From a virus (taxonomy: Duplodnaviria; Heunggongvirae; Uroviricota; Caudoviricetes), in IMG/VR virus record IMGVR_UViG_2721755676_000005, positions 1 through 7,647 of that record: a stretch of 7,647 bases of DNA, one strand, 5' to 3'. Position numbers and translations under genes: made by a program. Positions 3,446 to 7,647 of the stretch are shown here, in pieces. Each line of letters starts with the position of its first letter. The first letter of the stretch is position 1. Under the pieces are notes generated by a model. That model had not been told where the DNA came from, did not search any database, and saw only the letters and a program-made list of their open reading frames with translations.

Positions 3446-3967
3446 ATGATGCCATTTGCTCGTTATTTCTGCATTTTCATAAACGTTGGTTTGGGAGAAG
3501 GCTCTGCATTACCTGTTGGTGTGCCTGTTCCATGGCCTTCAGCCACACCGCCAACAGGCTGGCTGAAATGCAACGGTGCGGCATTTTCTGCTGAAGAATA
3601 CCCGGAACTGGCAAAGGCTTATCCAACAAATAAATTACCTGATTTACGCGGTGAGTTTATTCGTGGCTGGGATGACGGGCGCGGTATTGATGCAGGACGT
3701 GTTTTATTGAGCATTCAGACAGGGATGCTGGAAAAACACCGCCATATTGTTGTTGCAAATGATGGTTACGACACAAAAGATGAATGGGAACTGGCTACGA
3801 TTTTCAAAAAGACATACACACAAGGACGGGGACTTGATGCCACAAATACAGGAGGGAGTCTGATCCCATCACCGACACTTCATTCACGAGGGAGTATCGG
3901 TAATACTGGCGGGAATGAAACCCGTCCACGAAATATTGCATTTAATTTTATCGTGAGGGCTGCATAA
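3446..3967 (+). CDS. stfE: Tail-fibre variable C-terminal cassette (StfE-like), currently in the unfused (silent) orientation; true cassette coding begins at the crossover site, 3474
   Basis: Translation ...GLGEGSALPVGVPVPWPSATPPTGWLKCNGAAFSAEEYPELAKAYP...LPDLRGEFIRGW...ETRPRNIAFNFIVRAA shows the conserved hallmarks of Mu S / lambda Stf-type fibre tips (PxPWP motif, C-terminal NIAFN.IVR). The TAATG overlap couples it to the following tfa gene. Confidence 0.75.
   Translation: MMPFARYFCIFINVGLGEGSALPVGVPVPWPSATPPTGWLKCNGAAFSAEEYPELAKAYPTNKLPDLRGEFIRGWDDGRGIDAGRVLLSIQTGMLEKHRHIVVANDGYDTKDEWELATIFKKTYTQGRGLDATNTGGSLIPSPTLHSRGSIGNTGGNETRPRNIAFNFIVRAA
3474..3499. repeat. Pin crossover site, pin-proximal (26 bp): TTTTCATAAACG-TT-GGTTTGGGAGAA
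   Basis: Two 12-bp half-sites around a 2-bp core, matching the hix/gix/cix/pix pattern (TTNTCNNAAACC-NN-GGTTTNNGANAA). The inner half-site is the exact reverse complement of the inner half-site of the 5365-5390 site, and the core dinucleotide is inverted (TT versus AA). Confidence 0.7.
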
Positions 3968-5004: not shown

Positions 5005-5661
5005 TTACTCACCAACAGCCCACCAACTGTAATGCATAGATACCGTGTCACTGGTTGATGACGTTCTGTAAGCAGAATTAAAGCCGGTTAACGTAGGGCC
5101 TTCTGCAGTCATCACGAACCCTCGCCCAGCGCCTAAAGGCGCACCGCCATCACCAGAATGGGTAAGAATGGCGCAGTCCGCTTTTTTAGGGAAAGGGATA
5201 GGAAATGTAATCCTCATTGTTTGCGTCGATAATTTCGGCATAGCCTCGCCTCGACCATATTGCAGAATTTTACCGTTGGGTAATTTCATCCATCCATCAC
5301 CACTGGCAAAAGAGGCCATGTCCGGTATCTGATTTTCCCCTGTCCCTACATCCCGTTTTGCCGCTTCTCCCAAACCAAGGTTTTCGAGAGCCGTTTTCAC
5401 CGTGCCATCCGATTTGATATCACCAAACGGATTCTTGCGGCTTAACAGCAGAGCACGAAGCGCGGTAAGCAACTGGTCGTTTCGCCCCTTCTCCAGGCTG
5501 GCACCGGATGCCTCCACCACGCTGCAAAGCTCCTCCTGCAACATATCAAAGTAGTCATCATCGAGATCGGTGGCAGGTGTGCCAGTCTGGGGGTTACCAC
5601 GGGTACCCACCCGCCTGGTGTGCAACCTTCGCCAGGCACCGGGAGGCACCCGGCACCACAA
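5005..5661 (-). CDS. stfP: 5'-truncated side tail fibre gene (StfP-like): short constant-region stub fused in frame across the crossover site to the second variable C-terminus
   Basis: Translation contains ...[35 protein letters not shown] (resembles the end of the constant region of lambda Stf / P2 H fibres) followed by a distinct variable tip. The ORF-track start at 5661 is a TTG with an in-frame stop just upstream, and the first ~35 residues are not fibre-like, so the real N-terminus is missing or uncertain. Confidence 0.65.
5365..5390. repeat. Pin crossover site, pin-distal (26 bp): TTCTCCCAAACC-AA-GGTTTTCGAGAG
   Basis: Inverted partner of the 3474-3499 site, sharing 15 bp of identity (TTGGTTTGGGAGAAG on the complementary strand) through the core and inner half-site. 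It encodes ...ALENLGLGE... in the fibre frame. Confidence 0.7.
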
Positions 5662-5891: not shown

Positions 5892-6137
5892 ATGCTTCAA
5901 ATGTTAACTCTTGAAGAATGGGCCTCTGAAAAATACAGAAGTAATCCTCCAAGTGTGTCCACATTGCGTCGTTATGCTAAGCAGAATTTATTTTGCCCAC
6001 CGGCCATGAAACAAGGTCGGTTATGGCGAGTGCGTGAGGACGCTGAGTTAGTTGGGGAGTTGGTAACACCAGTAATCAAGAAAAATGACTCATTACTTTT
6101 GCAACGGATCTTGAGTGATGGCAGCCAGACCGCGTAA
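5892..6137 (+). CDS. xisE: Excisionase (XisE-like), 81 aa
   Basis: ATG at 5892 with an AAGGTG Shine-Dalgarno 7 nt upstream. Small basic protein immediately upstream of the integrase and overlapping it by about 20 nt, as lambda xis/int do. Sequence agrees with my recollection of e14 XisE. Confidence 0.85.
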   Translation: MLQMLTLEEWASEKYRSNPPSVSTLRRYAKQNLFCPPAMKQGRLWRVREDAELVGELVTPVIKKNDSLLLQRILSDGSQTA

Positions 6138-7245
6138 GAATAATGTTTCAGTACCTAACTTATATCCGCTTTATAGTAGGAAGGTAAATAAAGTCTATTG
6201 GCGGTATAAGCATCCAGTAACAGGGAAATTTCATGCGTTGGGAACTAACGAAGCTGAAGCCATCGCTATTGCCACTGAAGCCAATACACGCCTGGCTGAA
6301 CAAAGAACCCGACAGATTCTGGCTATCAGTGACAGGATCGCAACCTGCAAAGGAAAAGCGATCACAACGTCAACCTGGTTAGATCGCTATCAAGCGATCC
6401 AGGATGATAGGCTCAAAAGTGGTGATATAAGACTCAATACCTATAAGCAAAAAGCCAAACCAGTATCCTTGCTCAGAGAACGAGCAGGAATGAAGTTGAT
6501 CTCATCCGTTGATGTCAGAGATATAGCACAATTGCTTGATGAGTATATTACAGCTGGACAGCCTAGAATGGCCCAAGTCGTAAGGTCTGTATTAATCGAT
6601 GTGTTTAAGGAAGCACAGCATTATGGCGAAGTTCCACCAGGGTATAACCCTGCTCTTGCGACGAAGCAACCCAGAAGGAAAATCACCCGTCAACGCCTCA
6701 GCCTGGAAGAATGGCAAAAAATTTTTGATATCGCAGACTCCACTCATCGTTACATGGGAAATGCCATGCTGTTAGCGCTGGTTACTGGCCAACGTTTGGG
6801 AGATATATCCAAAATGAAATTCAGCGATATCTGGGATGATCATCTGCATATCGAACAGGAAAAAACCGGCAGCAAAATAGCCATTCCTCTTTCTCTTCGT
6901 TTGAATGTAATCAACTGGAGCCTGCGCGATGTTGTAGCTCGCTGCCGTGACTATGTAGATAGTCCATACTTAGTACATTTTTTCAGATCAACTTCACAGG
7001 CAGAACGTGGGGCACAAGTAAAAGCTAATACTCTGACTATGAATTTTAGCAAAGCAAGGGATCTGGCTGAAATTGATTGGGGTGAAGGAACCCCAGCAAC
7101 CTTTCATGAGCAACGTTCATTGTCAGAAAGGCTATACAAAGAACAGGGAATAGATACTCAGAAATTGCTGGGACATAAAACCCAGCAACAAACTGATCGT
7201 TATAACGATCTCCGCGGAAAAAATTGGGTAACTTTAACAATATGA
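6118..7245 (+). CDS. intE: Lambda-family tyrosine integrase (IntE-like), about 375 aa
   Basis: Tyrosine-recombinase catalytic signature is visible: R in ...LVTGQRLGD..., H-x-x-R in FHEQRSLSERLY, then LLGHK and the catalytic Tyr in TDRYND. I take the ATG at 6118 as the start (the ORF-track start at 6115 is GTG). Confidence 0.9.
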   Translation: MAARPRKNNVSVPNLYPLYSRKVNKVYWRYKHPVTGKFHALGTNEAEAIAIATEANTRLAEQRTRQILAISDRIATCKGKAITTSTWLDRYQAIQDDRLKSGDIRLNTYKQKAKPVSLLRERAGMKLISSVDVRDIAQLLDEYITAGQPRMAQVVRSVLIDVFKEAQHYGEVPPGYNPALATKQPRRKITRQRLSLEEWQKIFDIADSTHRYMGNAMLLALVTGQRLGDISKMKFSDIWDDHLHIEQEKTGSKIAIPLSLRLNVINWSLRDVVARCRDYVDSPYLVHFFRSTSQAERGAQVKANTLTMNFSKARDLAEIDWGEGTPATFHEQRSLSERLYKEQGIDTQKLLGHKTQQQTDRYNDLRGKNWVTLTI

Positions 7246-7356
7246 ATATTTACATGTATTAGTCGCGACTTGATCTGACACTGAGCCTTGAAAGGTTGAG
7301 AGTTACCGGTTTTGATATGGGTGTCGAATCCTTATACAAAACACGAGGTAACTCTC

Positions 7357-7647
7357 ATGCTTCATACTACCAATCCCGTTATCAAACACAAAACCGGTTT
7401 GCTCAATCTGGCTGAAGAACTCAGCAACGTATCAAAAGCCTGTAAAATCATGGGCGTTTCGCGTGATACGTTTTATCGTTACCGCGAACTGGTCGATGAA
7501 GGTGGTGTGGATGCGCTGATTAATCGTAGTCGCCGCGCTCCTAACCTTAAGAACCGTACCGATGAGGCAACTGAACAGGCTGTTGTTGATTACGCCGTCG
7601 CTTTCCCGGCACACAGTCAGCACCGGACGCAGCAACGAGCTGCGTAA
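7357..7647 (+). CDS. IS-element transposase, N-terminal HTH region (resembles IS481-like DDE transposases); partial or interrupted at the window edge
   Basis: ATG at 7357 with GAGGT 7 nt upstream (the ORF-track start at 7312 is TTG). Translation ...SKACKIMGVSRDTFYRYRELVDEGGVDALINRSRRAPNLK... is a typical transposase N-terminal HTH followed by the RSRRP motif. Family assignment is from memory only. An in-frame TAA occupies the last three bases of the window. Confidence 0.55.
   Translation: MLHTTNPVIKHKTGLLNLAEELSNVSKACKIMGVSRDTFYRYRELVDEGGVDALINRSRRAPNLKNRTDEATEQAVVDYAVAFPAHSQHRTQQRAA

Follow-up and report, generated by a model that had tools for sequence, protein, structure and literature searches.

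The window considered here, the whole stretch of 7,647 nucleotides that was analysed, aligns over its full length with the chromosomes of Escherichia coli SZQ1 and PK8568, interrupted by one 1-nt gap only (99.97% identity to SZQ1 by local blastn), and is 99.9% identical to that of strain USDA-ARS-USMARC-51408 (locus L001) except in one internal segment. The layout runs from ycgX, ymgL, ymgK, iraM and icdC' into a remnant of prophage e14 (mcrA, pinE, tail-fibre and tail-fibre-assembly genes, xisE and intE), and continues after intE with a frameshifted IS481 transposase gene, a 281-aa hypothetical gene on the opposite strand, functional icd, rluE and nudJ. The gene for the 375-aa e14 tyrosine integrase, intE (6118-7245, plus strand), is intact, carries the Pfam domains Arm-DNA-bind_1 and Phage_integrase, and is annotated as WP_000741308.1 in L001-L003. 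An Rfam scan of the window for non-coding RNA returned no family at gathering score.

The TGA stop codon of intE occupies 7243-7245, and the next plus-strand ORF begins 111 nt past that stop with an ATG at 7357, from which 96 codons lead to a TAA that fills the window's final three bases, 7645-7647. Pfam and NCBIfam profile searches describe this ORF (7357-7647) as a truncated transposase gene that retains the helix-turn-helix (HTH) domain only and ends in a premature stop. The 96-aa product is a winged HTH protein with a complete HTH_29 domain (residues 11-74, E=3.8e-22), and it aligns with the first 85 positions of the NCBIfam model NF033577, 'IS481 family transposase' (E=7e-18); its 65 bits on that model lie below the cutoff, as expected for a quarter of a protein. 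Of 5426 complete E. coli genomes, 3323 contain annotated transposase genes of the IS481 family that match positions 7246-7647 (402 nt) at the nucleotide level. To judge from these matches the ORF at 7357 is not a chance ORF, and the view of an earlier note on this DNA that it is IS-related is upheld, with the IS481 family now named by profile scores and annotated genome matches. The feature is ordinary and already known, being present in the public RefSeq annotation as a frameshifted IS481-family transposase (the PGAP entry in L001-L003 reads 'IS481 family transposase, frameshifted'). The window opens with the ycgX start codon (ATG) and closes with the stop codon of the truncated transposase ORF. 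The coincidence of the TAA with the last window codon is thus probably no coincidence, because the window appears to have been cut at gene-call boundaries.

The insertion sequence and its relatives

The boundaries of the element were located by alignment to an intact 1201-bp copy in strain Z1323CEC0019 (L005 3002-4202), which encodes a 346-aa transposase, WP_024236841.1. The copy studied here is 1202 bp long (L001 12010-13211) and begins with TGT at window position 7255, such that its left 393 nt lie in the window (7255-7647, plus strand) and the other 809 nt lie past it. It is identical to the intact copy at 1192 of 1204 aligned positions, with one gap and 11 substitutions. The earlier note had placed the start of the transposase about 110 bp past the int stop, which holds for the ATG of the ORF and not for the element, whose first base is only 9 nt past that stop. 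The left terminal inverted repeat, TGTATTAGTCGCGACTTGATCTGACA (7255-7280, plus strand), matches the reverse complement of the right end, TGTATTAGCTCAGACCTGATCTGACA, at 21 of 26 positions, and the two form 26-nt imperfect repeats of the TGT...ACA type. A scan of the whole window, with 0 matches expected by chance, found no second IS end elsewhere.

Window positions 7246-7254 are not IS DNA, and the last seven of them (7248-7254) are the left copy of a target-site duplication, ATTTACA, that recurs directly after the right IS end (L001 13212-13218). The duplication is perfect, and was found in 12 of 12 related loci. Three more copies of the element at unrelated loci are likewise flanked by 7-bp duplications (AGTAAAA, TTTAATG and TATAATG), and because of these the AT-rich 7-bp duplication is a property of the IS and not a coincidence. 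A further 1201-bp copy, on plasmid pCEA224S (L025 1502-2702), lies between GGTCATA and CCACGGA, without a target duplication; it is annotated with an internal stop and adjoins IS100 and a YopJ-family acetyltransferase gene. Its flanks suggest a rearrangement after insertion.

IS481-family elements have imperfect TGT...ACA inverted repeats and lengths of about 1-1.3 kb (ISfinder ranges). Their transposase is read from one ORF without the programmed frameshifting of IS3. The element described here resembles them in having, when intact, one transposase ORF whose product has an HTH at the N-terminus and a putative DDE (rve-type) core, as well as in its length of about 1.2 kb, its TGT...ACA imperfect repeats and its short target duplication. 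Profile scores likewise assign it to the IS481 family, with 293.6 bits on NF033577 for the e14-borne copy repaired in silico and 292.6 bits for intact WP_024236841.1, against a cutoff of 224. On the IS3 model, whose cutoff is 160, the repaired copy reached only 77.9 bits and the two copies 78-82 bits; the transposases of IS481 and IS3 are related (PMC10045372). Target duplications in the IS481 family are reported to be 6 bp in most members and about 15 bp in some (PMC10045372), whereas the four independent copies here have 7 bp, and the window copy differs further in being a frameshifted pseudogene. In the intact relative, HTH_29 and rve_3 both exceed their Pfam gathering cutoffs (rve_3 at residues 256-326, 47.0 bits against 26.5), and rve at residues 162-267 (E=4.3e-07, 30.6 bits) falls just below its gathering cutoff of 32.6 bits. 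Candidate DDE residues, chosen by eye from motifs, are D168 or D190, D234 and E274, all of which lie past the window.

The intact E. coli element (Z1323CEC0019, L005 3002-4202 and L024) shares with the window copy the same inverted repeats and 7-bp duplications, but differs in its 346-aa transposase, in the absence of an extra G (see below) and in 11 substitutions, 6 of them amino-acid changing. Z1323CEC0019 has seven places matching the element; the two copies examined there are full length and have independent 7-bp duplications. The presence of seven matching places in one genome implies that the intact form is evidently the active one. Copies covering at least 80% of the IS are held by only 77 of the 5426 complete genomes. 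Most of the other thousands of matches correspond to IS nt 1-473 at about 95.8% identity and are annotated ylbG, a K-12 pseudogene present in most E. coli. ylbG has the same IS origin and also encodes only the HTH part, annotated as a 'helix-turn-helix domain-containing protein'. It differs in being a physical 5' fragment at another chromosomal locus, whereas the e14-borne copy is full length, with both ends and a point frameshift. By these alignments ylbG is an old 5' remnant of the same IS, and it accounts for most of the 3323 matching genomes. It has been stated that 'one truncated ISErsp1 element' is the only IS481-family representative on an E. coli chromosome (PMC13463583). ISErsp1 (listed in ISfinder under the IS481 family) is as a name for the element only a lead; a truncated copy fits the ylbG remnant.

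The extra G and the fate of the transposase gene

The sole gap in the alignment to the intact copy is an inserted G at position 7629 (plus strand), in codon 91, within the context CGGAC[G]CAGC. This base moves the reading frame onto the TAA at 7645-7647, and when it is removed in silico a 346-aa ORF is regained, with six residue changes relative to the active protein (A13T, G87S, R108H, L123P, V180A and M228I). The remainder of the transposase, including its rve/DDE part, lies in the +1 frame, where an ORF starting at 7586 runs to the window end (7586-7647, plus strand) and onward, its ...SNELR matching the intact protein; gene callers report a separate 270-aa rve product for this frame (L008 7469-8281). 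The suggestion of the earlier note that a transposase ending at the last three bases of the window must be frameshifted or continue in another frame has therefore proved right, the inserted G being the cause and the +1 frame the place of the rest. The extra G is common to 12 of 12 loci. A sequencing or assembly error at 7629 was considered and rejected, as the base is outside any homopolymer and is repeated in independent assemblies. The single 1-nt difference between the window and SZQ1 or PK8568 is not at 7629 and lies in a GGG/GG run at 7319-7321, in the 5' UTR or leader of the IS. That run is GGG in the window, L001 and the intact IS, and GG in SZQ1, PK8568, L011 and L013, and the window combines an SZQ1-type internal structure with the GGG run.

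Twelve related loci were inspected: L001-L003, and nine distinct contexts (L008-L016) reached through the exact IntE protein. They come from the USA, China and Pakistan and from metagenome or draft assemblies, and represent at least five internal e14 structures. All 12 share the insertion site, the ATTTACA duplication and the extra G, and among them the IS differs by at most one substitution and the length of one G run. The nine IntE contexts range from small remnants to far more complete prophages with KilA-N, RusA, PerC, Dam and replication genes. The exact IntE allele occurs in 476 blocks of a protein-position index, and nine of the nine places read carry the IS. Among the 5426 complete genomes of E. 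coli, three carry the e14-borne copy, and each of them has only two places matching 7246-7647, one of which is this copy and the other, presumably, the ylbG remnant. The IS and its frameshift are, by this comparison, old and inherited, and would predate the various e14 deletions, because the same IS, duplication and extra G are present in all nine IntE contexts; the five or more internal structures of the carriers point to several independent deletions after IS insertion.

These observations are very probably best explained by a defective IS481-family element that inserted neutrally, later suffered a one-base frameshift and has been inherited dead. The ancestor would have been an element with 26-bp imperfect TGT...ACA repeats and one gene for a 346-aa HTH and DDE transposase. 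A single transposition, by ordinary DDE cut-and-paste or copy-and-paste with a 7-bp staggered target cut, would have placed it in an AT-rich 10-bp spacer, AT-ATTTACA-T, between the convergent stops of intE and the 281-aa e14 cargo gene. A later one-base insertion (G7629, codon 91) would then have introduced a stop after 96 residues, sparing the HTH only and leaving the catalytic domain untranslated in the +1 frame, and the copy would have passed on with its e14 lineage as an immobile pseudogene. The window copy is accordingly a predicted inactive, immobile pseudogene, and we infer that insertion preceded the frameshift and that the 96-aa remnant is without function.

It is conceivable, if quite improbable, that the 96-aa HTH protein has been retained as useful, either by binding IS ends and inhibiting incoming copies or as a regulator, that is, by domestication. 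The HTH_29 domain (residues 11-74) is complete, a similar 5' remnant, ylbG (IS nt 1-473), has been kept in about 3000 E. coli genomes, and the allele is nearly invariant among carriers. Recent common descent explains that invariance equally well, however, and the 96 codons show two nonsynonymous and two synonymous changes relative to the active copy, with no signal of purifying selection; furthermore, the stretch of IS upstream of the ATG contains no promoter-like site. A wider version of the same idea, in which the frameshifted copy is not inert, either because the 96-aa HTH protein binds the inverted repeats of incoming copies and acts as a trans-inhibitor (as ylbG might) or because outward transcription from the IS ends, running into the 3' ends of the two convergent genes, modulates intE or the 281-aa gene by antisense, is likewise quite improbable. 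A scan of the IS for promoters and terminators gave matches at chance frequency. A weak sigma-70-like site at L001 13185-13213 (9 of 12 positions) points outward, antisense to the 281-aa gene, with its -35, CTGTCA, in the right inverted repeat and its -10, TACAAT, spanning the junction of IS and target; such sites are no commoner here than in shuffled sequence.

The two-frame layout could alternatively be functional, with programmed frameshifting as in the IS3 family and the 96-aa HTH protein as an OrfA-like regulator. The relatedness of IS481 to IS3 (reflected in the 78-82 bits on the IS3 model) would agree with this, as would the position of the break right after the HTH, which resembles an OrfA/OrfB boundary. 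The downstream frame is nevertheless +1, while the IS3 family uses -1, and reading of 7586-7647 revealed neither a slippery heptamer nor a prfB-like motif (CUU UGA C with an upstream SD); frameshifting of the IS3-type -1 kind was rejected on these grounds. Moreover, in the relatives that are multi-copy and evidently active a single 346-aa ORF runs without interruption, the two-frame state of the window being a 1-nt insertion that those copies lack, and two matching places per carrier genome give no sign of proliferation. Programmed frameshifting is on balance highly improbable.

The insertion site and the end of the prophage

The duplication is separated by 2 nt from the TGA of intE on its left and by 1 nt from the stop codon of the 281-aa gene on its right. 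Removal in silico of the IS and one copy of the duplication gives TGA-AT-ATTTACA-T-TTA, in which a 10-nt spacer separates the int stop from that of the convergent 281-aa gene. Because the target duplication is present and the flanking genes are intact, we regard this as a simple insertion, one that almost certainly fell into the 10-bp gap between convergent stops, disrupting neither gene and losing no DNA. An IS-free version of the site was sought in three ways. Megablast of an 800-nt reconstructed junction against the 5426 complete E. coli genomes returned only three IS-bearing genomes, each as two half-matches; a 28-mer across the IS-free junction, CAATATGAATATTTACATTTAGTCTATC, had no exact match in genome_contigs or metagenome_contigs; and no empty site appeared among the nine distinct places read through the exact IntE protein.

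To the right of the IS come first the 281-aa gene, next an e14 arm of about 270 nt with 96.5% identity to that of K-12 e14, and then the icd junction. The segment L001 14093-15500 is 96.5% identical to K-12 (L007 16632-18039) and 97.2% identical to strain CFSAN061772 (L006). A 227-nt direct repeat of 91% identity links icdC' (L001 4782-5008) with the 3' end of functional icd (L001 14134-14360). Its window member, at 1465-1691, lies at the opposite end of e14 and is the original chromosomal 3' end of icd, now displaced; it pairs with the icd 3' end that e14 itself carries, and in the alignment window 1471-1691 matches L001 14139-14360. This repeat is the signature of e14 integration in icd, and by these alignments both attachment junctions are present, as are int and xis. 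Extending the sequence downstream, as the earlier note had proposed, thus gave the outcome of a simple insertion as far as e14 sequence and the icd junction past the IS are concerned, but not as far as the transposase is concerned, which is not intact.

The earlier note had stated that in canonical e14 int is followed by lit and other genes before icd, which is right for K-12 (intE, lit, ymfE, ymfD, icd), and had raised the possibility that the IS truncated the int-proximal end of e14, so that attL was lost and the prophage locked in place. The absence here of lit, ymfE and ymfD, which follow intE in K-12, would agree with such an event, as would the start of the IS only 9 nt past the int stop. 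Truncation is nonetheless extremely improbable. Both inverted repeats are present, and the 7-bp duplication is perfect on both sides, which it would not be after a deletion beside the IS; past the IS lie the 281-aa gene, convergent and complete, the e14 arm and a chimeric icd with its 227-nt duplicate; and other e14 variants that do not carry this IS also lack lit, for instance CFSAN061772, which has other cargo. The absence of lit is not due to the IS; the cargo between int and attL differs among e14 variants.

The same note had suggested that the IS mediated an internal deletion of the e14 remnant, which is heavily deleted relative to K-12, but this is scarcely credible, since the breakpoints that separate the window from USMARC-51408 (5049/5050 and 5600/5601) are about 1.65 kb from the IS end at 7255 with xisE and intE intact between them, the window holds no other IS end, the duplication is intact, and the same IS allele sits in differently deleted and in far more complete e14 elements (L010, L012 and L014). 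Given this identical allele across such different elements, the deletions would therefore be later than, and independent of, the IS. Between the breakpoints the window has a 551-nt gp53-like tail-fibre fragment, and USMARC-51408 has a 1989-nt segment (L001 8367-10355) with cro-like and LexA-like repressor genes that are gone from the window.

The e14 remnant and its cargo slot

The remnant shares with K-12 e14 its place in icd, with the icd 3' end duplicated, as well as mcrA, pinE, tail-fibre genes, xisE, intE and the conserved arm beside icd. It differs in that the whole regulatory and morphogenesis block is missing from the window version, and in that the slot between intE and attL, which in K-12 holds lit, ymfE and ymfD, is here occupied by the IS and one orphan gene of 281 codons. 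Over its last 164 nt (window 7082-7245), intE is only 75% identical to the K-12 gene; across all of xis-int, identity to CFSAN061772 is 87.7%, compared with 95-97% for other shared e14 DNA. Because its identity is below that of the other shared e14 DNA, the integrase module is, as far as such comparison goes, mosaic or divergent in the e14 lineage of the window. A 20-nt inverted repeat of 95% complementarity, at 3481-3500 (AAACGTTGGTTTGGGAGAAG) and 5364-5383 (CTTCTCCCAAACCAAGGTTT), brackets the tail-fibre and assembly genes beside pinE, and presumably its two arms serve Pin as crossover sites for inverting the P segment; the one on the right falls within the segment absent from USMARC-51408.

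Comparison of the slot in three elements (window 7245 to L001 14093; L006 14810-18535; L007 13430-16631) found conserved flanks around different contents, with a hypothetical gene, a nucleotidyltransferase gene and a Cap15-family gene in CFSAN061772. No more than a few bases from the int stop, e14 variants cease to be similar (for CFSAN061772, at window 7252). From these alignments the int-attL segment of e14-type elements reads as a variable cargo slot, and the CFSAN061772 pair as CBASS-like.

The 281-aa orphan of the present lineage, WP_000892216.1 (L001 13220-14065, minus strand), lies just past the right end of the window, between the IS and icd. Searches of Pfam, NCBIfam and PADLOC gave no match for this neighbour, and PHROGs gave only an insignificant endolysin match (E=0.0077). 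Inspection of the translation by eye suggests a soluble N-terminal half followed by about four C-terminal hydrophobic stretches, which are probably transmembrane. Only eight distant homologues (34-40% identity) were found among 5.8 billion proteins; all three of those examined belong to P2-like prophages, where they sit on the opposite strand between genes S (tail completion) and V (spike). This S-V position would be an accessory ('moron') slot, and the 281-aa protein is a candidate superinfection-exclusion or abortive-infection protein.

For the e14 remnant itself, which keeps both attachment junctions, int and xis, the IS would be a neutral passenger, and not the cause of prophage decay or immobilisation. 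The insertion has little importance beyond correct annotation. Shared as they are, the insertion and frameshift can conveniently serve to mark one e14 lineage by a single event. Of greater biological interest is what adjoins the IS outside the window, the variable cargo slot between int and attL, with its Lit, its CBASS-like pair and its uncharacterised, probably membrane-bound, protein.
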